Shown in pieces: positions 946 to 11,505 of a stretch of 64,000 bases of DNA (the first letter of the stretch is position 1; each line of letters begins with the position of its first letter). A program made the translations under genes and the position numbers. Below the pieces are notes generated by a model that worked only from the letters and a program-made list of their open reading frames with translations, was not told the DNA's origin and ran no database searches. Source of the stretch: an uncultured Solirubrobacterales bacterium (GTDB lineage: Bacteria; Actinomycetota; Thermoleophilia; Solirubrobacterales; 70-9); NCBI GenBank assembly GCA_963699225.1, contig OY969423.1, positions 2,032,740-2,096,739 on the forward strand, read 5' to 3'.

Positions 946-2874
946 GTGGCGCTGCTGGGTGCGATGGCGGCACTGGCCGGCCTCTGTGGCAGCGACCCGG
1001 CCAAAGCGGCCTGGAGCGGAGCCGAACAGGTGAAAAGCTACCTCTCGCAGCGCAACGTCAACGCCAGCCTGCTCGACGACGGCACCGCGCAACTCGGCTT
1101 CACCGCGACCACCGCGCCCGGCGGCGCGGGAATGTACGTGTTGAGCCGGCCCCCGGAAGCGGCCGCCTGGACGCCGACCTTCCTTGGCACCGGGCCGCCC
1201 AACGCGAGCTTCGCCTTCGGCCGCGACGGCTCGGCGGCGGTCGTCTTCGAGGGCGCCCAGGAGGGAGGCAAAGACACGGTTTGGGGCATTTATCGCAAAG
1301 CCAGCGGCAGCTGGGGGGCGGTGACCAAGCTCGCGGTCGTGCAGCGCATCGACGCCGGACCGGTGGCGGCGATCGATGACGAAGGCGATGCGGCGGCGAT
1401 CTGGATCGACCGCAGCACCAGCGGCCTGATCGCTCCCGACCGGGTGATGCAGTCGAGCACCTCGACCGGCACCTGGCCGGCGTCGCCGCAACAGCTGGCC
1501 CCGATCGCCGCTCCCGATCCGCAGATCCCCGATGGCGGCGGCGGCTTTGTCTTCGCCAATTGCGGCCCGGGCGTGTTGGGGGCCGCCGTCTTGCCCGACG
1601 GCACGCCGATCGCGGCTTGGGACTCGCCCTACGGCTCTTTCAAGTCGCACGGCACCGAACCGACCCCGTCCGATCAGGAGTGGGCGGTCTGCGGGGTGCA
1701 GATGGCGAAGGCGGGCGGCCCGGTCGTCAACGTGACGCCGCGGCCCGCGATCGGCTGGAACGAGACGCCGTCGAGCGCGATCCCCGACTGGAAGCTGACG
1801 CGGATGAACGTCGACCCGGTGACGGGGGAGGTCGCGCTGATGGCGGTTGGCCTCGATGACGCGCTGAAAACGACCTGTGCTGGCAGCGTTGACTACTGCC
1901 GCCGCACCGATACGCAGCTGCGGATCTCGCTCGGTGGCTCAGGCGGGGTGCCCCACCCGGGAACCCTGCTCGGCTCCAACATCAACGGCATCGCGGCCCT
2001 GCGCAACGGCTTCGTCGCGGTCGCGAGCCAGAACGGCTCGAATCCGCTCGCGGCCGGTGTCGGCGGCTCGATCCCGAGCCTCACCCCGCTTACGCCCGAC
2101 AAGCCGCTCTTCGCCAGCTCCGCGATCGCCCTGGGCCCCGCCGGCGAGGCCCAGCTGCTCACCGCCACCAGCATCCCGACGGGGCTCTGGGGCTACAGCG
2201 CCGGGGCGGGGCAGCAGTTCGGCAGCGGCGTCCAAATCACCACCAATCAGATCCAGACGGTCTCGGCCTCGGTCGATTGCCGCGGCAACGCCTTCGCAGG
2301 CATGGCGACCGGCTCGACCGCCGGCTACCAGGTCCACGTCGCGACCAACCCGTCGGGGGCGTCGAGCGGCATCGGCTGTATCGTTCCTGGCGGCGAAGAA
2401 CCCGGTCCCGAAGAACCCGACCCCAAAGGCCCCGGTCCCTCGGATCCCGGTGCGTTGGGCCCCCCGAACGTCGGCGCCCAGGACCCGCCCCACACCGACC
2501 CCGTGCCCAACACGCTCGGCAACCTCGGCCTGCTCACAGTCCTCCCCGATGGCAAAACCGTGAAGCTCACGGTCGCCTGTTCGGTGGCGGCTGTCACCGG
2601 CTGCTCCGGCACGGTCGGTATCGCCCCCCTGGACGGCGCCCGCATCTCAGCCAGGCCAAAGAAGTCGGTGAGCTACGGCAGCACCAGGTTCGCCGGCATC
2701 GCCCCCGGCGCGAAGAAAACGGTCACGGTCAAGCTCAACGCCAAGGGCAAAGCGGCGCTACGCAAGGCTGGCTCGCTGCGAGTTCTAATCACGGTCGCGA
2801 TCAGCGACGCCCGCAAGGTCACCCGCACCCAGAGCTTGACGAAGAAGCTGAAGCTGCCGCCGAAACGCGGCTGA
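946..2874 (+). CDS. secreted hypothetical protein (large, Gly/Pro-rich linker, beta-rich C-terminal tail)
   Basis: ORF 817-2874. In-frame GTG 946 and ATG 964 precede a signal-like segment, VALLGAMAALAGLCGSDPAKA. The C-terminal tail (KTVKLTVACS...KKTVTVKLNAKGKAAL...) resembles the tails of the 11574-13250 and 32607-33629 products. The start is uncertain. Confidence 0.55.
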   Translation: MALLGAMAALAGLCGSDPAKAAWSGAEQVKSYLSQRNVNASLLDDGTAQLGFTATTAPGGAGMYVLSRPPEAAAWTPTFLGTGPPNASFAFGRDGSAAVVFEGAQEGGKDTVWGIYRKASGSWGAVTKLAVVQRIDAGPVAAIDDEGDAAAIWIDRSTSGLIAPDRVMQSSTSTGTWPASPQQLAPIAAPDPQIPDGGGGFVFANCGPGVLGAAVLPDGTPIAAWDSPYGSFKSHGTEPTPSDQEWAVCGVQMAKAGGPVVNVTPRPAIGWNETPSSAIPDWKLTRMNVDPVTGEVALMAVGLDDALKTTCAGSVDYCRRTDTQLRISLGGSGGVPHPGTLLGSNINGIAALRNGFVAVASQNGSNPLAAGVGGSIPSLTPLTPDKPLFASSAIALGPAGEAQLLTATSIPTGLWGYSAGAGQQFGSGVQITTNQIQTVSASVDCRGNAFAGMATGSTAGYQVHVATNPSGASSGIGCIVPGGEEPGPEEPDPKGPGPSDPGALGPPNVGAQDPPHTDPVPNTLGNLGLLTVLPDGKTVKLTVACSVAAVTGCSGTVGIAPLDGARISARPKKSVSYGSTRFAGIAPGAKKTVTVKLNAKGKAALRKAGSLRVLITVAISDARKVTRTQSLTKKLKLPPKRG

Positions 2875-2986
2875 GCCGCGTCGCCTTGCCACGCTTCCCA
2901 AAGAAGCTTTGGTTGCAGCCCGGCTATCCCAAGTAAAACGCCTAAACCTTTGGTAGCGTCGTTTCCATCCCAAGGATCCCAGGGAC

Positions 2987-4189
2987 ATGAGCGGCGCCTT
3001 CACGAACAACAAAGCGGGCAGGGCCGGGCAGTTCACGCCCGTGCCTTCTGAGTCTGGCGCCTACTCGACGTTCTCGCCGAAGCCCCTTCCACCAGATCCT
3101 CCGCTTGCCATCGATGCGGAGATGCAACGCCTGCTGGATCGGGCGAATCAGGCCTTGGGTCGACTCGACGGCATCACCCTCCTTCTGCCCGACGCTGATC
3201 AGTTCCTCTACAGCTACATCCGCAAGGAGGCGGTGCTTTCCTCGCAGATCGAGGGCACCCAGTCCTCTCTCTCGGATCTGCTCCTCTTTGAGCACGATGT
3301 TGCGCCGGGTGTCCCGGAAGAGGACGTGCGCGAGACCACCAATTACCTCGCCGCGCTCAACCTGGGCCTAAGAACCATGGAGGAGGGCCTTCCTCTCAGT
3401 TTGCGCCTCCTGAAGCAGATTCATGGCGAGCTCTTGCGCGGCACTCGCGGCGGCGCGACTGGCCCGGGCGAGTTCCGTCGAATTCAAAACTGGCTCGGCG
3501 GATCCGAGCCCACGGCGGCTCGCTACGTCCCTCCACCCCCAAACGAGGTGCCGTCCGCCATGGCCGACCTCGAGAAGTTTCTGCACGGCGAGCCCGTGGC
3601 CATGCCCATCCTGATTAGAGCCGCGCTGGCCCACGCCCAGTTCGAGACGATCCACCCATTCCTCGATGGCAACGGTCGACTAGGCCGACTCCTTGTGACG
3701 CTCCTGCTCTGCAGCGAGACCGCTGATGGCGAAGCCCGCGTCCTCTCGCGGCCTCTGCTCTATCTGAGCCTTCACCTGAAGAGCCACCGCGACACCTATT
3801 ACGAACGGCTTCAGGCGATCCGGACCGACGGCGATTGGGAGGGCTGGCTCCGCTTCTTCCTGGAGGGAGTGATCTCAGTCGCCGACCTTGCGAGCGAAAC
3901 CACCAAGCGGATCGTCGAGCTGATCGAGCGAGACAGGAAGCGGATCAGCACCCTCGGCCGCGCGATGGGCTCAGCCCTGCTCGTCTTTGACCACGCTGTC
4001 AGAGAGGTCGTCCTACGAATCCCCGAAACCGCCGAGCAGCTGCCGGTCTCCGAACCGACAGTCGCCACGGCCATCAGCCAACTAGAGCGAATCGGCATCC
4101 TCCGCGAGCTCACCGGCCGCCCCCGCAACAAGATCTTCGCCTACGACGAGTACCTGAAGATCTTGAGCGAGGGGACGGAGCCGCTGTAG
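2987..4189 (+). CDS. Fic family protein (AMPylase-type fold with N-terminal inhibitory helix and C-terminal wHTH-like tail)
   Basis: Fic motif HPFLDGNGRLGRLL (HPFx[DE]GNGR). An inhibitory-helix-like SSQIEG ([ST]xxxE[GN]) lies upstream. 400 aa, with visibly lower GC3 than the core genes. Confidence 0.9.
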   Translation: MSGAFTNNKAGRAGQFTPVPSESGAYSTFSPKPLPPDPPLAIDAEMQRLLDRANQALGRLDGITLLLPDADQFLYSYIRKEAVLSSQIEGTQSSLSDLLLFEHDVAPGVPEEDVRETTNYLAALNLGLRTMEEGLPLSLRLLKQIHGELLRGTRGGATGPGEFRRIQNWLGGSEPTAARYVPPPPNEVPSAMADLEKFLHGEPVAMPILIRAALAHAQFETIHPFLDGNGRLGRLLVTLLLCSETADGEARVLSRPLLYLSLHLKSHRDTYYERLQAIRTDGDWEGWLRFFLEGVISVADLASETTKRIVELIERDRKRISTLGRAMGSALLVFDHAVREVVLRIPETAEQLPVSEPTVATAISQLERIGILRELTGRPRNKIFAYDEYLKILSEGTEPL

Positions 4190-4315
4190 GGCACTGCGCC
4201 GTCGGTGCCGGTAGGCCACTGCGTGTCACGGAAACAAATAGTTCCGAAACAGGATTAGGATCGTCCCTTAACGCTCGGCGGGGAAGCAACCGAGTTAATG
4301 CGAGAGGGAGATCAG

Positions 4316-4618
4316 ATGACCCCAAGTTCTAGACAGGCCACTGTAGTTGCCGTTCTCTATCTCCTCTTGGTGGGAGTGATCGCGGTGGTCGCACTCCACG
4401 AGTACCGGATCGATGACTTCCTCAAGGTTTGGGCTGTACTCGGAACCCTAGTCGGAGTTCTAACGGGCGCCGTCCCGTCCTACTTCTTCGCTGTCTCTGC
4501 GGGGGACGCCAAAGAAAAGCAGGCGAAGGCTGAGGAAAGAGCACAGACGATCCTAGGGGTCGCGGATTCAGACGCTCTTAAAAGGGCGAAAGAACTGCGC
4601 TCCGATCTCTTCAAATAG
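4316..4618 (+). CDS. small membrane protein (two predicted TM helices plus charged helical tail)
   Basis: ATG 4316 follows GAGGGAG with a 6-nt spacer. Hydrophobic segments VVAVLYLLLVGVIAVVAL and VWAVLGTLVGVLTGAVPSYFFAV. The gene ends 30 nt before the KAP NTPase gene. Confidence 0.55.
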   Translation: MTPSSRQATVVAVLYLLLVGVIAVVALHEYRIDDFLKVWAVLGTLVGVLTGAVPSYFFAVSAGDAKEKQAKAEERAQTILGVADSDALKRAKELRSDLFK

Positions 4619-4647
4619 ACCACCGCCCACCAAGCCAACTTCGCACC

Positions 4648-7134
4648 GTGGCGCCTGAGCCAGTGCATTCCGCCTCATCAATTGTGGCTTCGGATCTAAT
4701 TCCGGATCGTGCTCTGCGTGCCGGGGATCCTGATGAATTCGACTACGCCCCTCTTGCAAGTCGGGTTGCAGAGCTTTGCGACGCAGCCGAGACTCCAGTC
4801 AATATCGCTCTCTTCTCTCCTTGGGGCTCGGGTAAGTCGAGCCTCTACTCCCTAATCGAGAGACGGCTGGCTGCACTAGGAGGGCACTCTCGGCTTATCC
4901 GCTACGACGCCTGGCGCTACGGCGGGGATGGACTGCGCCGTAACTTCATCGCCCACGTAGCCCGGGAGTTGCACCTTCCTCACGAGGACCCTCACTACTC
5001 GGAATTCAACCGCGGCCTCTATGAGAATCAGCGACGGGTTTCGCTAACTCTGCCCGGACTTTGGAGTGCACTGCGAAACGCCCGTCTCTGGCCGCTGGTT
5101 GCCTTGGCAGTGTTCCTCGCGGCCGTTGGTGCCCTGCTCGGCGTCGACTCGGTTCTGATCGGCGCTTTGATCTCCACCTTCCTGTTGCTGATCACCGCCC
5201 TGGTCGACGCCGGCAAGGTCGAAATCGAGCAATCCAAGCCCTCCGAGGACGAGGAGTTCTTCTCGCGCTTTACCCGCCTGGTCGAATGGGCGACGGACGA
5301 GAGTGCCCCAGTTCGCGGCGCCCGGGTTCGGGCTGCCGAGCGTTGGGATCGCCTCCGCCAAACCGTGGCCGAGCACGTCGGTCTCTACCGATTGTTGTTT
5401 TGGTGGTCAGAGAAGGTCGAGGCCCGGCCCTATCCGCTGCCCAAGCCAAGGCGCCTGGTGTTCTTCATCGATGAGCTCGACCGCTGCAGTCGCGCCGACA
5501 TCGTCAAGACCCTGAAAGCCCTGCGCACCTTTCTGGACGCAGATCGTTGCGCCTTCATCGTCGCCGCCGATCGTCGTGTGATCGAACAGGCGCTCGGAGA
5601 GGTTGAACAGTCAACCCCATCTGAACCCGAAGTTCCCTACTACTCGAGTGCCGGTGCCTACCTCGACAAGATCTTTCAACACCAGTTGGCCCTTCCGCCG
5701 CTTCAGGGCTCACGCTTGACCAGCTTTGCCGGTGTGCTGGTCGAAAAGCAAATCGCCAGAAGTAAAGATGGGCCTGGCTTTTGGCGTGAGTTGCAGGAGG
5801 CCGGCGAGGGCGACATTCTCGATGACGCTCTCTATGCACTGATCCCCTCTCATGTGCGCAGTCCCCGGCGGGTCAAGGTGCTGCTCAACAACTTCGTAGT
5901 TACGGCCAAGCTCGCAGAAGCGCGCGGCGTTTACGTTCCCGCTCGGGCTCCCGAGGTCGCAAAGCTCGTTGCCCTCCGCACCGAGTTCCCGGTTTTCGCC
6001 GCGGTCCTTTTTCGCGAGCCCCGCCTCGCCAGCTACTGGACTGAGGCCGCGGTTCCTCCCGACCACCGCATTGAACAGGTCCAGAGGTTGATGGCGGAGA
6101 TCGCCGATTCACCTGGCCCCGCTGCCTACATCGACGGTCTCGACCAGACCGGATCAGGGAGCACTTCCGAAGAGCTTTCAACTCGCCATTTCGAAGAGCT
6201 TCGCCGCTACCTCGAGCGCACCGCAGATACCAGCGACCCCGGCCGGGATCTGCTTTATCTAGAGGCGCCGGGGAAGATCTACAACCTCGATCCTGAATTT
6301 GGCGAGCGCCTCGAGCGCGACGCCCCTGATGTGCCGCTCGAGGTGCTTGATTCGCTCTCCGAACAGAACGAGGAGACCAAGCGCAGCGCCGCGCGACTCC
6401 TATCCGACATGGTTCAGACCCTTAGGGGCCCGGAGCGCTCACGGGTGATGACGGTGCTGATGGGTCTCGCCGAGCAGCTCGATCCTCTCGGTACGACCGC
6501 GTGGTATCTCGCCAAGGCGCTGAAGACCTACCGCAGGGCCGAGGAGCTAGACGCCGACCATCTAGTCGGAGCCCTTCGAATCGCCCTTGACGAGGCGCCG
6601 ACGCCGATACCTGGGCGCGAGCTCGTCACTCGGCTCTTCGCCGACCCCCGACTGCTCGAAACGCCCGCCCGGATCGAAAGCGTGGCAAAAATGGCCAGCC
6701 GCCTCTCCGACGCAGAAATCGAACAGCTGTGGACCGCAATCGCGAGCGTCGTCGTGGAGAGTCCTTCAGTTCTAGTGGTGCCTCTGGAAAGGCTCGACGA
6801 AGGGACCGCGCTCGCTCTGATCAATTCCGACCAGATCTGGGGTGCCATACGAGCCGCTGAGGCTGACTACCCCGCTGAGAGGGTTGCTGAGATTTGCGAT
6901 CAGCTGCAACTCGCTGGCCTTTCCGGACCTTCGAAGCCAGAGCTTGCCTTCCGAATCCAGGGCCACCTGCTCGACTGTGAATCGGGGCTTGCTTATCAGG
7001 TGGTGAACCGGTATGCCGACGAGGTCTTCGATGGTCAGGGGGACGACCAGCGGGTCAATGCGCGTGTCCTGCATGCCTGGCGGCACGCCCCGGCTGAGCA
7101 TTGGGAGGAATGGAATGGACGCCTCCGTGTCTGA
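4648..7134 (+). CDS. KAP-family P-loop NTPase with membrane insert (Tmn-like)
   Basis: Walker A SPWGSGKSS (about nt 4816-4839). Two hydrophobic helices, LWPLVALAVFLAAVGALLGV and VLIGALISTFLLLITALV (about 5085-5205), are inserted before Walker B LVFFIDELDRC (about 5455-5487). That insert position is the KAP hallmark. A long helical C-terminal region follows. GTG start. Confidence 0.85.
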   Translation: MAPEPVHSASSIVASDLIPDRALRAGDPDEFDYAPLASRVAELCDAAETPVNIALFSPWGSGKSSLYSLIERRLAALGGHSRLIRYDAWRYGGDGLRRNFIAHVARELHLPHEDPHYSEFNRGLYENQRRVSLTLPGLWSALRNARLWPLVALAVFLAAVGALLGVDSVLIGALISTFLLLITALVDAGKVEIEQSKPSEDEEFFSRFTRLVEWATDESAPVRGARVRAAERWDRLRQTVAEHVGLYRLLFWWSEKVEARPYPLPKPRRLVFFIDELDRCSRADIVKTLKALRTFLDADRCAFIVAADRRVIEQALGEVEQSTPSEPEVPYYSSAGAYLDKIFQHQLALPPLQGSRLTSFAGVLVEKQIARSKDGPGFWRELQEAGEGDILDDALYALIPSHVRSPRRVKVLLNNFVVTAKLAEARGVYVPARAPEVAKLVALRTEFPVFAAVLFREPRLASYWTEAAVPPDHRIEQVQRLMAEIADSPGPAAYIDGLDQTGSGSTSEELSTRHFEELRRYLERTADTSDPGRDLLYLEAPGKIYNLDPEFGERLERDAPDVPLEVLDSLSEQNEETKRSAARLLSDMVQTLRGPERSRVMTVLMGLAEQLDPLGTTAWYLAKALKTYRRAEELDADHLVGALRIALDEAPTPIPGRELVTRLFADPRLLETPARIESVAKMASRLSDAEIEQLWTAIASVVVESPSVLVVPLERLDEGTALALINSDQIWGAIRAAEADYPAERVAEICDQLQLAGLSGPSKPELAFRIQGHLLDCESGLAYQVVNRYADEVFDGQGDDQRVNARVLHAWRHAPAEHWEEWNGRLRV

Positions 7135-8323
7135 GCCCGAAATCGCGATCGCCGATCAGGCCGGAGAGGTGGTGGTGACGATGTTGGCCGGGTTTGACGC
7201 GGCACCGACCGAGGTGCAGTTCGAGGTGCCGCATTTCTGCGAACGGCTGGCGCCGATGCTCGTGCCGTCCTCGGCAGAGTCACTGCAGGAGGGGGTCGTC
7301 CATCGCATCGAAGAGATGCTCGCCGCCGATGAGTGGTCGGCGAGCGATGAGGCATGTGAACGTCACGTACGGCTCTACCGTGTCGCCATGGCCCTGCGCT
7401 CGGTCGAGTCGATCGCCGAGTCGCTTGAAGACGCGCTTCGAAACGACGCAGCGCGGATCCCGACCGAGGGATGGACGCTAGAAATTCTGCGCCGCGCCCG
7501 ACAGCTCGGTGCCGAGGCCCCCAACGCAGCCCGTCAGGCGATCATTGATCAGTTGCCGGCGCGCGATTGGGAGGCCCCCGAGCAGGCCGCCGCCGTGGCT
7601 CGTGCGCGGGCAGAGCTAATCCTCGCCCTCGGCGATGAGGCCGGGGTCTGGCCCTTGAGCCCCGTCGACGCCCGCGCTGCCTTTGAAACCCAAGAGAACC
7701 GCGACGCCCGCGCGGCTCTAATCGCCTGGCTTCGCGCCAAACCTTCGCCGAAGATGGTTCGCACACCCCTGGTCAGCAACGGAGTAAGACACGATGAGCT
7801 TGTCGATGCAGTCGCGACTTGGGCAAGGAAGCAGCCCGAATCATTTCGCACCGAGATCGCCGTGGCCCTGATCTCCCACAAGGTCCGCCGCCGCCGCTCT
7901 CTGAAAGCCGTGGCCGCTGGCGGAATAGATGAGCGCAAGCTCGCTAACTATGCCGGCAAGCGCCTGCGACCGATGCGCCGGGTCGAGGACCGTCGTCCGG
8001 TCGCCGAAACTCTCTCCGGACATATCTTCAAAGACGAGGGGGCTCGCGCCCAGATAGTGCGCCTGATCGCCTTCCTCTTGAGACCCGGAGAACCGAAGGC
8101 GAATATGGAGATCGTTAACGAGCTTCTGTCGGCGCTCGGACAGAAGCTACTCGTTGACCCCGAACCCCTTAGCACCGCGATTCGCCGTGCCCAGAAGCGC
8201 TGGAAGCTGAAGTTGACCGAGAATCAAGGCACGCGCTTGGTCGCACTCGGTGTCAAGATCGAAAAAGGCTGGTTCGGTGAACGGATAGCCAAGCGAGTTT
8301 GGAAACGCTTGCCAAAGCTCTGA
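7115..8323 (+). CDS. hypothetical alpha-helical protein, overlaps the KAP NTPase gene by 20 nt
   Basis: In-frame ATG 7115 (MDASVSEPEIAIADQ...) lies within ORF 7013-8323. It overlaps the 3' end of the KAP gene, suggesting co-translation. No motif recognised. Confidence 0.6.
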   Translation: MDASVSEPEIAIADQAGEVVVTMLAGFDAAPTEVQFEVPHFCERLAPMLVPSSAESLQEGVVHRIEEMLAADEWSASDEACERHVRLYRVAMALRSVESIAESLEDALRNDAARIPTEGWTLEILRRARQLGAEAPNAARQAIIDQLPARDWEAPEQAAAVARARAELILALGDEAGVWPLSPVDARAAFETQENRDARAALIAWLRAKPSPKMVRTPLVSNGVRHDELVDAVATWARKQPESFRTEIAVALISHKVRRRRSLKAVAAGGIDERKLANYAGKRLRPMRRVEDRRPVAETLSGHIFKDEGARAQIVRLIAFLLRPGEPKANMEIVNELLSALGQKLLVDPEPLSTAIRRAQKRWKLKLTENQGTRLVALGVKIEKGWFGERIAKRVWKRLPKL

Positions 8324-8456
8324 TGGAAAATGGAATCGCTACCGATAAAACGGGGCTTCCTCGGAGCAGGCGTCTGATCCCAAGTAGGCGCATGTGGTGG
8401 GCAGTCTTAAGAACCAGAAAGTGTCTACTTGAGGGCAGGATGATTTCTGCACATTT

Positions 8457-8485
8457 TTGATGGGGTAGTGTCCCGTTACTAAACT
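8457..8485 (+). promoter_or_regulatory. candidate sigma70-type promoter for the 8548-10067 gene pair
   Basis: TTGATG (8457-8462), a 17-nt spacer, then TAAACT (8480-8485) in an AT-richer intergenic stretch. It is followed by an inverted repeat, CTCCAAGT/ACTTGGAG (8497-8517), flanked by direct GAGTTCTC copies. Confidence 0.45.
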
Positions 8486-8547
8486 CTTGCTGAGTTCTCC
8501 AAGTCTTATACTTGGAGTTCTCGGTTGGTGTTCGCCTCCGCCCCATC

Positions 8548-9033
8548 ATGCTGCCAATGGCCCTCAGTGACACTGCTGCGATCTCAATGGTCGGAATCGT
8601 CGTCTCCGGCGTCGTTGGGCCCGGAGTCGCCGCGCACTGGGCGCGAACGAGGCAGCGCGACGATCATCAACATGCTCGCGCCCAGAAGGAACTCGATGAT
8701 CTAACTTCGCTGCTCGACGCAGCTGCCGTCACGCTCGCCCCCGGTGTGACGCGGCTGCGACAGGCGAGGTCCGAAGCCGACCCCGACATCGCAATGTGGG
8801 CGACCGAGGTGCACGCGACCTATGAGCGTCTGCTTTTGAGGGTCCCGGTCGGTGACCCTGTCGCCACCAGTTACATGACTGCGCGGGATCGTCTCACCGC
8901 CGTCGCCGCAACTTTCGACGCCTCAGCTTCAGAGGTCGAAGAGAACGAGGCAATCGGATCTTTCGAGGAGGCTCGACTGTCCTACCTAAATGCGGCCCGC
9001 GCTTGCCTCACGAAGAAGGGAGGGGCGATATGA
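8548..9033 (+). CDS. hypothetical protein with N-terminal TM helix
   Basis: ORF 8512-9033. In-frame ATGs at 8548 and 8557. TM-like AAISMVGIVVSGVVGPGVAA. The stop overlaps the next start (ATGA at 9030-9033). The start is uncertain. Confidence 0.5.
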   Translation: MLPMALSDTAAISMVGIVVSGVVGPGVAAHWARTRQRDDHQHARAQKELDDLTSLLDAAAVTLAPGVTRLRQARSEADPDIAMWATEVHATYERLLLRVPVGDPVATSYMTARDRLTAVAATFDASASEVEENEAIGSFEEARLSYLNAARACLTKKGGAI

Positions 9034-10067
9034 CTGTGACGCTTTCGGACCTGCAGATCAGTGATGCCGTTGTGCACGACGTGCCACGGCCAGAAACCGG
9101 CGAGCCGCTGACCCTCACTGATAGCCCGGTGGCGCTTGACACCGAGCTCGAGAACTATTTTCGCGACAAGCTCAAGGAGTCGCTGCTTGGCCGTGGCATT
9201 CGAATCCAAGCCGATCCTGGACTGCCTCCCGTCGTTAGGGACAGCGTCGGAGCAATTCTCTCCGATCCAACCCGGCATGTTTCTGCTTCGCAGGCGATGG
9301 CGGTACATCTTTTCGAACTACAGAAGAAGACCAATTCACCGGGCCTACTGACTGTCATCAGAGCGCGAGCTGCCAACCAAGACTTGATCGCTGTACTGAA
9401 GCTCGAGCGCGAGGTAGGGGTTCACGTTCTGATTGACGATGAAGGTCCCAAGCGTGTAATCAATTTGGAGTTCCTCCGCGATCTCACCCTTACGCGCAAG
9501 ACCCGCGTCTTCAAGGCGGCTGTCGTAGAGCTCGTTGATCACTCCAATCCTCTGACTATGCAGGGTCTCGCCTCCGACGATCAGCGAAGCCGAACGGAGG
9601 GACGAGGTTTGGCACGCTTTTTCCTTTATGACTTTCTCGGATGCCAGCTCAGCGCGAGTGCCGAGAAAGCGACCCAAGACTTCTGGAATGCGGCGCAGAC
9701 GTTTATCAACGAGGATGTCCTCTCGCCCGAGCGCAAGGGTCGATATCAGGTCGCGGTCCAGGCCTTCCTAGAGGAGCCCGAAGAAGACCTTCGTCCCGAA
9801 ACGTTCGTTCAACGGGCGATCGACGCCAACGACCAGCCGAAGCTGCGACAGAGGATTGTCGATCAGGGGCTGAACCCGCAGTCCACCGTGCCCAAGGACA
9901 CCGGACTGATCGCCAGAAAGATCATGGGATTTCGCGTCACGTTTGGACACGGAATGTCTCTCGTTGGCGGCCGCGACGATCTCAATGAGCGGGTTGACCT
10001 TCCAAGCCAGAATGGCTCGGGTCACACCGTAATCCGCGATTCGATTAAGAGCTTCTCCGGGCGCTGA
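9030..10067 (+). CDS. nucleoid-associated protein NdpA/YejK-like (NA37 family)
   Basis: MTVTLSDLQISDAVVHDVP at the N-terminus, DLIAVLKLEREVGVHV centrally, and RFFLYDFLGC matching the family signature (YFRDFIGC / FFMDFLGA in Pseudomonas and E. coli NdpA/YejK as I recall them). About 345 aa, as in that family. Confidence 0.65.
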   Translation: MTVTLSDLQISDAVVHDVPRPETGEPLTLTDSPVALDTELENYFRDKLKESLLGRGIRIQADPGLPPVVRDSVGAILSDPTRHVSASQAMAVHLFELQKKTNSPGLLTVIRARAANQDLIAVLKLEREVGVHVLIDDEGPKRVINLEFLRDLTLTRKTRVFKAAVVELVDHSNPLTMQGLASDDQRSRTEGRGLARFFLYDFLGCQLSASAEKATQDFWNAAQTFINEDVLSPERKGRYQVAVQAFLEEPEEDLRPETFVQRAIDANDQPKLRQRIVDQGLNPQSTVPKDTGLIARKIMGFRVTFGHGMSLVGGRDDLNERVDLPSQNGSGHTVIRDSIKSFSGR

Positions 10068-10259
10068 CCGTATTCCTAGTAGTCGTGGATCTGCCTCACC
10101 GCATCTTTGCCTGCTGAGGCTGCTGTGCTGGCCAAAATGAGCGGAAATCGACGAATCCTCAAGATTTGAGCCACTAGTGGCTCAAATGGAGTGCGATACG
10201 GCGAGATCGCCTGGGATTCCGAAACGGAGAAGGCTCCGACTAGCAGGGCCTTCTTGAAG

Positions 10260-10332
10260 TGGAGCTAGGCGGATTCGAACCGCCGACCTCCTGGGTGCGA
10301 TCCAGGCGCTCTGCCAGCTGAGCTATAGCCCC
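10260..10332 (-). tRNA. tRNA-Ala (anticodon CGC)
   Basis: The reverse complement is GGGGCTATAGCTCAGCTGGCAGAGCGCCTGGATCGCACCCAGGAGGTCGGCGGTTCGAATCCGCCTAGCTCCA. It folds as a cloverleaf with a G3:U70 pair and anticodon loop AUCGCAC. CCA is not encoded. Confidence 0.92.
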
Positions 10333-11432: not shown

Positions 11433-11505
11433 GGGGCCATAGCTCAGCTGGCAGAGCGCCGCCTTTGCAAGGCGGAGGTCGCCGGTTCGATCCCGGCTGG
11501 CTCCA
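11433..11505 (+). tRNA. tRNA-Ala (anticodon TGC)
   Basis: GGGGCCATAGCTCAGCTGGCAGAGCGCCGCCTTTGCAAGGCGGAGGTCGCCGGTTCGATCCCGGCTGGCTCCA. Cloverleaf fold, G3:U70 pair, anticodon loop UUUGCAA. Confidence 0.92.

Follow-up and report, generated by a model that had tools for sequence, protein, structure and literature searches.

That P-loop NTPases anchored in the membrane and equipped with solenoid arms act as immune sensors has been demonstrated only very recently, for Tmn (2026) and for the transmembrane (TM) KAP proteins (2026). Tmn is an NTPase of the YobI family that assembles into a decameric hub and whose P-loop domain contains two TM helices; armadillo (ARM)-like and HEAT-like repeats make up its distal arm, the phage protein RIIB is bound by both arms, and activation leads to more ATP turnover, export of Mg2+ and plasmolysis (PMC13001434). 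It was defined there by means of PADLOC, it lacks conserved operon partners, its clades Ia and Ib have a median length near 1,270 amino acids (aa), and it was reported mainly from Pseudomonadota, Bacillota and Bacteroidota (PMC13001434). TM-bearing KAP NTPases with unknown C-terminal regions (EF_KAP in the following) protect Enterococcus faecalis from phage, and both the Walker B motif and the C-terminal region are required for this (PMC13552941). Here we analyse a cassette of three genes from an uncultured Solirubrobacterales bacterium, located in a stretch of 64,000 nucleotides (nt) of contig OY969423.1 that we call the window. Its central product is a KAP-family NTPase of 828 aa, which is preceded by a 100-aa protein and followed by an overlapping gene for a 402-aa protein. 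An earlier note made from the letters of this DNA, which we call the original prediction, had seen in the cassette a Tmn-like NTPase with additional components.

Our reading, to which we give a probability of about 90%, is that the main product of the cassette is a KAP-family NTPase anchored in the membrane, and that its ancestral polypeptide of ~1,250 aa was cut into two translationally coupled genes. One of them (828 aa) carries the core, its TM hairpin and the proximal arm, the other one (402 aa) the distal ARM-like solenoid, and a 100-aa glycine-zipper protein has been added upstream in one subclade. The three open reading frames (ORFs), their positions and the 20 nt that the KAP and 402-aa ORFs share in different frames (Table 1) are as originally predicted; the gap between the small ORF and the KAP ORF measured 29 nt. 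Since homologues of all three proteins are found in the same gene order in independent contigs, the ORFs are real genes and did not arise by chance. The idea of a tightly spaced three-gene cassette also held, as the order small protein, KAP, partner recurs in loci with 48-92% KAP identity and differing flanks. A scan of the locus for sigma-70-type promoters gave no site, and the only terminator-like signal was a single weak hairpin at 8435-8450.

Table 1. Features of the cassette and its neighbour, in positions of the window. SD, Shine-Dalgarno sequence; AF2, AlphaFold2 model.
Feature	Positions	Strand	Description and evidence
Small gene	4316..4618	+	100-aa two-TM glycine-zipper protein, first gene of the cassette; ATG 4316 after GAGGGAG (4304-4310); ORF, SD, TM segments, alignment
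KAP gene	4648..7134	+	828-aa KAP-family P-loop NTPase, predicted membrane-anchored hub with proximal helical arm; GTG start at 4648, TGA stop; Pfam, AF2, homologues
Walker A (P-loop)	4822..4842	+	WGSGKSS, residues 59-65; W59, G60, G62, K63, S64 and S65 invariant in 42 homologues
TM hairpin	5077..5220	+	Residues 144-191, between Walker A and Walker B; hydropathy, model helices, conservation
Walker B	5461..5487	+	FFIDELDRC, residues 272-280; F272, D275, E276, L277, D278 and R279 invariant in the 42 homologues
Fission junction	7103..7134	+	SD GGGAGGA (7103-7109), 5 nt, ATG 7115, KAP stop TGA (7132-7134)
Partner gene	7115..8323	+	402-aa ARM/HEAT-like alpha-solenoid, detached distal C-terminal arm of the KAP protein with a putative role in trigger recognition; ATG 7115 after GGGAGGA (7103-7109); AF2, Foldseek, homology
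Fic-domain gene	2987..4189	+	SoFic defence type, context and not part of the cassette; PADLOC SoFic E 3e-113; Pfam Fic_N and Fic

Regarding the 402-aa protein, the original prediction had described it as a helical partner without any recognisable motif. This protein is indeed all-helical and had no match in Pfam, NCBIfam, PHROG or PADLOC, but it is no extra component, as it corresponds to the C-terminus of the KAP protein. It is collinear with the last ~400-480 residues of single-gene relatives of ~1,200-1,300 aa: it aligned with residues 958-1241 of P0049, a protein of 1,247 aa (BLASTP E 2e-24), with residues 866-1160 of P0067 (E 9e-5), with residues 725-1187 of P0106 from Patulibacter sp. 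(1,212 aa; hhalign 99.2%, E 2e-19) and with residues 767-1169 of a plasmid protein of 1,190 aa from Dietzia kunjamensis (E 4e-5). The end of the KAP protein of the window, …HAWRHAPAEHWEEWNGRLRV, has its counterpart in …RAWQRAPTEDWHLWARRLRPG…, which lies midway along P0049. A collection of 5.8 billion proteins contains 641 relatives of the KAP protein, and many of them are 1,165-1,355 aa long, compared with 828 + 402 = 1,230 aa here; by length and alignment the 828-aa product is the N-terminal two thirds of an ancestral protein of ~1,250 aa.

An exhaustive search with a profile hidden Markov model of the partner among 1.84 billion representatives found 156 proteins, and the following numbers are our own count over the 150 of them that were listed. 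Among these listed matches about 57 were longer than 950 aa, with the partner match at the extreme C-terminus, and about 35 were stand-alone proteins of 385-522 aa; the remainder were fragments or pieces of 600-860 aa that also ended in the partner match, and the partner domain was found in no other setting. We also observed proteins of 596-864 aa that end in the partner domain (e.g. P0188, P0194, P0195 and P0200), together with KAP pieces of 612-704 aa. These lengths suggest that some proteins were cut at yet another place, closer to the N-terminus (roughly 550-620 | 630-740), or else that the contigs are truncated.

The position of the cut is not the same in all the clades. In a KAP clade ~50% identical to the window protein, KAP genes of 758-781 aa are followed by partners of 493-516 aa (~773|510). 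The first ~80 residues of these longer partners (~505-510 aa) align to residues 747-822 of the KAP protein of the window, and their C-termini align to the partner of the window and to P0049; this indicates, at the level of the alignments, that the ~773-aa clade was cut about 55-75 residues earlier in the same ancestral protein. A third layout, 880|411 (L060), is sister to fused proteins of 1,242-1,247 aa. As the partner is collinear with the C-termini of the fused proteins and the cut points differ between clades, the 402-aa protein is a piece that was split off the KAP protein by recurrent gene fission, and not a recruited subunit.

In a FastTree phylogeny of 112 N-terminal regions, in which the architecture was deduced from length only and some of the proteins taken as split may come from truncated contigs, the fused forms are spread across the base of the tree, the window falls in a large and mostly split clade, and at least nine changes between the fused and the split state are needed. 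Within this split clade a fused KAP protein of 1,297 aa (P0039, L062:952-4845) stands beside a split one of 777 aa (P0035), with branches of 0.15 each. Here the fused and split states may toggle easily, or one of the two contigs may carry an indel.

The junction between the two genes is well preserved. We aligned its DNA in four loci with 72-92% protein identity, and the GGGAGGA, the spacer of 5 nt, the start codon and the TGA were kept in all of them, the start of the partner being ATG except in L002, where it is GTG. The clade of the window partner, with the 828|402 split, has 14 clusters with 58-100% identity, 13 of which are exactly 402 aa long, and the KAP genes that go with them have 816-833 aa in independent assemblies. 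Furthermore, both halves are under purifying selection. Such an arrangement is typical of re-initiation or translational coupling, and as none of the three signals (SD, start codon, TGA) has been lost, the split is a stable, translationally coupled fission and no error.

The 828-aa protein is a KAP NTPase with two TM helices between Walker A and Walker B, as had been proposed, and Pfam, hydropathy and the AF2 model agree on it. The Pfam family KAP_NTPase (PF07693) matched it with an E-value of 5e-27 and 95.4 bits, far above the cut-off of 20, and the fused relatives scored 98-109 bits. In the AF2 model, which has a predicted local distance difference test (pLDDT) of 79.7, there is a P-loop alpha/beta core and only helices from residue 354 to the end, with pLDDT mostly >=90 from about residue 560 to 828. 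The hairpin helices 148-164 and 167-188 of the model sit between the strand 81-87 and the Walker B strand 269-275, and the TM hairpin is followed by a conserved juxtamembrane motif, DAGKVEIEQSKPSEDEEF. The best Foldseek matches of the model were the RdrA rings of RADAR and ORC/Cdc6 (E about 1e-3); on the strength of the model they point to an oligomerising NTPase similar to those of the signal transduction ATPases with numerous domains (STAND) and AAA+ classes. Because the KAP model is all-helical after residue 354, the cut would fall inside a single long helical arm or at one of its joints.

For the 402-aa protein, AF2 gave a model of high confidence (pLDDT 92.1, predicted TM-score 0.85), which has 21 helices of 8-21 residues and is all-helical. 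Its top Foldseek matches in the PDB were designed armadillo-repeat proteins and importin-alpha, with probability 1.0 and E about 3e-4. A sequence search of the PDB with the KAP protein, the partner and the ~500-aa protein family described below gave no match. In a comparison of the window with the 50%-identity clade, identity is 58-65% for the small protein, 50-53% for the first 740 aa of the KAP protein and only 23-26% for the C-terminal ~490 aa. Therefore, the distal C-terminal arm is the fastest-evolving part and looks sensor-like in this respect, which agrees with the original suggestion of a sensor role for the helical C-terminal parts.

Regarding the small protein, its TM segments cover roughly residues 4-32 and 35-60 and are followed by a charged helical tail. 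The family is strongly conserved: the loop and the second TM segment carry the invariant motif DDFLKVWAVLGTLVGVLTGAxPxYFFA, with a GxxxGxxxG glycine zipper at G43, G47 and G51, and the invariant residues are L18, Y30, D33, F35-V41, G43, T44, L45, G47, V48, T50, G51, P54, F57 and F58. The family is rare, with 37 clusters in the 5.8 billion proteins, and nothing significant was found for it in Pfam, NCBIfam, PHROG and PADLOC, the PHROG match to 'Rz-like spanin' (E 0.005) being insignificant. Copies 58-91% identical are located 6-30 nt upstream of KAP genes in L002, L003/L004, L015-L021, L057 and L063, and no small TM gene was found upstream of the fused or other split forms in L001, L058, L059, L060, L061, L062 and L065.

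The original prediction had made its case depend on the co-occurrence of both partner genes with KAP NTPases in other genomes. In ten look-ups centred on KAP genes, the partner was present in all ten (8 separate and 2 fused) and the small protein in four (P0020, P0028, P0038 and P0029); a six-frame hmmsearch and the inspection of the upstream ORFs found nothing in the other six. The expectation was therefore borne out for the 402-aa protein and only in part for the small one, which also occurs without KAP genes. As it is absent from six of the ten KAP loci, the small protein cannot be essential to the core mechanism, and the hub must be able to act without it. By its distribution in the sequences it is a genuine but optional accessory of two subclades, either gained once and lost in a third subclade, or gained twice. 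The proposal of a multi-component system rather than a single-gene form is right insofar as a small protein was added, but the 828-aa and 402-aa genes are a fission of the single-gene form.

Distant homologues of the small protein (30-56% identity; 46-56% by tblastn) occur without any KAP gene. In these loci (L006:5368-7272, L022:4696-6512, L023:6992-9000 and L024:6947-8873) the small gene directly precedes the gene of a ~500-aa protein, which has a soluble N-terminal part of ~370 aa and 3-4 C-terminal TM helices. These ~500-aa proteins are 31-51% identical to each other and had no match in Pfam, PADLOC, NCBIfam and the PDB, and together with the small protein they may form a second two-gene membrane module. 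The small protein thus has two membrane proteins as partners that are not related to each other, and this speaks for a general role at the membrane. It might form a pore and so provide the output, or it might serve the hub as a membrane adaptor or as a regulator; we put this forward only tentatively. Somewhat more doubtful is the wider idea that it is a portable output or adaptor module common to the split KAP NTPase and the ~500-aa protein, with the window encoding a membrane immune complex of three parts, in which the NTPase would serve as hub, the detachable ARM solenoid as sensor and the small protein as pore or adaptor. If this idea were true, such a complex would have no described counterpart, and its detached sensor could be exchanged independently of the hub.

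How the cassette compares with Tmn is of particular interest, because the original prediction had called it Tmn-like. The architecture is strikingly parallel: in both, two TM helices separate Walker A from Walker B inside the P-loop domain, the cytosolic arms are long, all-helical and terminate in an ARM/HEAT-like solenoid (here according to the models), the total length is about 1,230-1,280 aa, the C-terminus varies beside a conserved NTPase core, and the occurrence is sporadic and tied to mobile elements. The self-contained single gene, which is a feature of Tmn, is also seen in the fused relatives such as L001 and L065. Nevertheless, the cassette differs from Tmn in that its gene is split in two ORFs with a conserved small TM gene upstream, and membership in Tmn did not stand. 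The KAP protein, with its 95 bits to KAP_NTPase, reached only 11.7 bits with the Pfam family YobI-ATPase (E 0.19, over 21 P-loop residues, cut-off 27), and 10.6 bits in a search of the whole genome. Among the Actinomycetota, 4 of 301 sampled genomes carry true YobI proteins, which are 1,232-1,307 aa long and reach 280-350 bits with PF20693. Aligned by hhalign to a true actinobacterial YobI protein, the profile of the window KAP protein matched in only 30 P-loop columns, and the profile of the partner did not match this protein at all. Tmn membership was thus ruled out by YobI-ATPase, by PADLOC, which gave no Tmn match, and by hhalign. As an aside, two proteins of the true YobI/Tmn family in Actinomycetota are located at L070:1184-5020 (minus strand, 1,278 aa) and L071:1231-5148 (minus strand, 1,305 aa).

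The TM-KAP NTPases of PMC13552941 are the closest functional class. In the protein analysed here, as in EF_KAP, the KAP_NTPase domain bears TM helices and precedes a region without known domains, and both proteins are found in mobile or defence settings. In contrast, EF_KAP has one N-terminal TM helix and another one inside the domain, where our protein has a two-helix hairpin inside the domain; the C-terminal region of EF_KAP has 322 aa and here there is a helical arm of about 880 aa over two genes; and the hosts of EF_KAP are Firmicutes. We set EF_KAP apart by its description and not by its sequence.

PifA and QatA are also KAP-family P-loop NTPases of phage defence, and they gave the best partial matches in PADLOC and NCBIfam (QatA E 8e-22, PifA E 1.7e-15). 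PifA is responsible for the exclusion of T7 by the F plasmid. The match to QatA covers only P-loop segments, with 84.6 bits in NCBIfam against a cut-off of 600, and qatB, qatC and qatD were not found nearby, the neighbours being SoFic, a 173-aa TM protein and an NA37 protein. Likewise, the match to PifA is limited to P-loop segments, and PifA has no TM helices (PMC13001434). RdrA of RADAR (PDB 8hr8, 8fnu), the best Foldseek match of the KAP model, is a ring-forming defence ATPase with a helical C-terminal domain; unlike the window protein it has no TM hairpin, the match is weak (E 1e-3, TM-score 0.23-0.28) and there is no RdrB deaminase among the genes of the island. In the literature we found neither a split KAP protein nor this small protein described. 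Judged by its sequence, the cassette is best described as a KAP-type analogue of Tmn that is not yet catalogued, in which the sensor arm is split by nature and a small membrane protein is an optional addition.

With regard to the genomic setting, the G+C content of the window is 0.66-0.71 and dips to 0.58-0.64 between about 2,500 and 10,300, and a tRNA-Ala(CGC) gene at 10259-10332 on the minus strand forms the right edge of this low-GC island; a comparison with the flanks gives 0.58-0.62 against 0.68-0.71. No integrase was found in the island (2500-10332), and no convincing att-like direct repeats at its bounds. The cassette was not found in 60 related genomes (36 of the same genus and 24 of the same order), so that no insertion site could be defined by synteny, and the KAP family is present in 3 of 401 genomes of the phylum, the other two carrying fused forms. 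The neighbours of the relatives are HEPN/MNT, AbiE and PIN genes in L001, a large serine recombinase and a PIN gene in L002, an AAA_15/AAA_21 ATPase in L003, an integrase in L059 and a TrwC relaxase in L061. In L065 (CP155438.1, positions 1849-8597), which is the Dietzia kunjamensis plasmid pDK2035-53, the fused KAP protein of 1,190 aa (XAU44943.1, 35% identity) is immediately downstream of a complete MmeI-type restriction-modification enzyme, and the plasmid is mobilizable (MOBF). Taken together, the low-GC island at a tRNA-Ala gene, the SoFic gene, the patchy presence and the defence and mobile neighbours of the relatives favour a role in defence, as far as gene context can indicate it.

We consider it rather probable, with clearly less confidence than for the fission, that the cassette is an anti-phage or anti-mobile-element system of the kind formed by a membrane NTPase with a solenoid sensor. 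For its mechanism we propose a series of steps, in analogy to Tmn, to the TM-KAP proteins and to STAND logic. First, the two halves of the KAP protein would come together without a covalent bond, so restoring the full-length architecture, and would form oligomers at the membrane; the fast-diverging solenoid arms would then bind a protein of the invader; this binding would switch the NTPase; and an insult at the membrane level, either a flux of ions or solutes or a loss of membrane integrity, would stop the infection.

Some of our results weigh against what we propose, for the structure as well as for the function. The KAP loci that lack the small protein include both fused (P0049, P0039) and split forms (P0055, P0051, P0037, P0048), the TM-scores of the Foldseek matches of the 402-aa model are low (0.2-0.3), and low values of this kind are usual for solenoids of differing curvature. 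No enzymatic effector domain is recognisable, and the output is guessed by analogy. In PADLOC-DB 2.0.0 the KAP protein of the window had only partial matches to QatA, PifA and PDC-S20 in the P-loop region and none to Tmn, and the same was true for the fused relatives. Moreover, SoFic, which directly precedes the cassette in the window, keeps this place only in the ~90%-identity relatives (L015-L017) and not in the more distant ones, and the host is an uncultured Solirubrobacterales known as a metagenome-assembled genome.

Other explanations were weighed against these proposals. That the genes are separate, tightly coupled and conserved in their layout is what one would also expect from a multi-component variant of Tmn in which the 402-aa protein was recruited independently as a sensor or effector subunit. 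We think this very improbable, given that this protein is homologous to and collinear with the C-terminal third of single-polypeptide relatives, that the clades are cut at differing points of the same protein and that the family tests for Tmn/YobI fail. A shade less probable still is that the split is an artefact or a sign of decay, that is, either a pseudogene with a frameshift, a fault of the assembly, or a programmed +1 frameshift yielding a single protein. An overlap of 20 nt in different frames could arise in this way, and the fused P0039 beside the split P0035 in the tree could be taken in the same sense. Against it stand the uniform lengths of the partner and KAP genes in independent assemblies, the conserved SD, start and stop, and the purifying selection on both halves; in addition, no slippery motif was seen by inspection, and the SD is >20 nt from the stop, unlike in prfB. 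A frameshift or an assembly error in particular was ruled out, since the split, the SD, the start and the stop are conserved across independent contigs.

An explanation without immunity has to be considered too. The cassette could be a membrane-associated complex for signalling or housekeeping with an NTPase, or it could serve the maintenance of a mobile element or the exclusion of others, to the benefit of the island or plasmid and not of the host. The PifA protein of the F plasmid is reportedly a case of this kind, as it has been argued to serve the element rather than the host. Several relatives are on plasmids or beside relaxase or integrase genes, no effector domain is visible, and the role first suggested for KAP NTPases was to control how membrane complexes are assembled (cited in PMC13001434). 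However, the family is found in very few and scattered genomes, its C-terminal arm changes rapidly, the relatives repeatedly adjoin defence and toxin-antitoxin genes, and anti-phage activity is established for NTPases with a comparable layout, both of the TM-KAP and of the YobI kind (PMC13001434; PMC13552941). We consider this explanation unlikely, though far less so than a recruited subunit or an artefact, and keep to the reading that the cassette is probably an uncatalogued anti-phage system of soil actinobacteria.

If so, the design known from Tmn and the TM-KAP proteins is also present in a KAP-type lineage of soil Actinomycetota (mainly of Solirubrobacterales type, plus the Dietzia plasmid), which is missed by the current defence catalogues. 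A sensor arm that is cut from its hub at several independent positions is a natural experiment in domain dissection, and it predicts that the hub and the distal arm fold and associate autonomously. The naturally split forms provide ready-made constructs for mapping the recognition of the trigger, and, as the Dietzia kunjamensis strain is cultured, XAU44943.1 offers a usable experimental handle for the family. The optional glycine-zipper protein, which is reused with a second family of membrane proteins, is a concrete candidate for the output step. The present analysis also corrects an over-reading, because the cassette is neither a system of three families nor Tmn.

Finally, two further observations concern the surroundings of the cassette. 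The same island carries two overlapping genes at 8512-10067: one for a 173-aa protein that has a TM segment at its N-terminus, which runs into the start of the other, for a nucleoid-associated protein of 354 aa similar to NA37/YejK (Pfam E 2e-14; PHROG 1974 E 5e-21); this pair is not beside the cassette in the ~90%-identity relatives (L015-L017). Beyond the right edge of the island there is a second tRNA-Ala gene, with the anticodon TGC, at 11433-11505.

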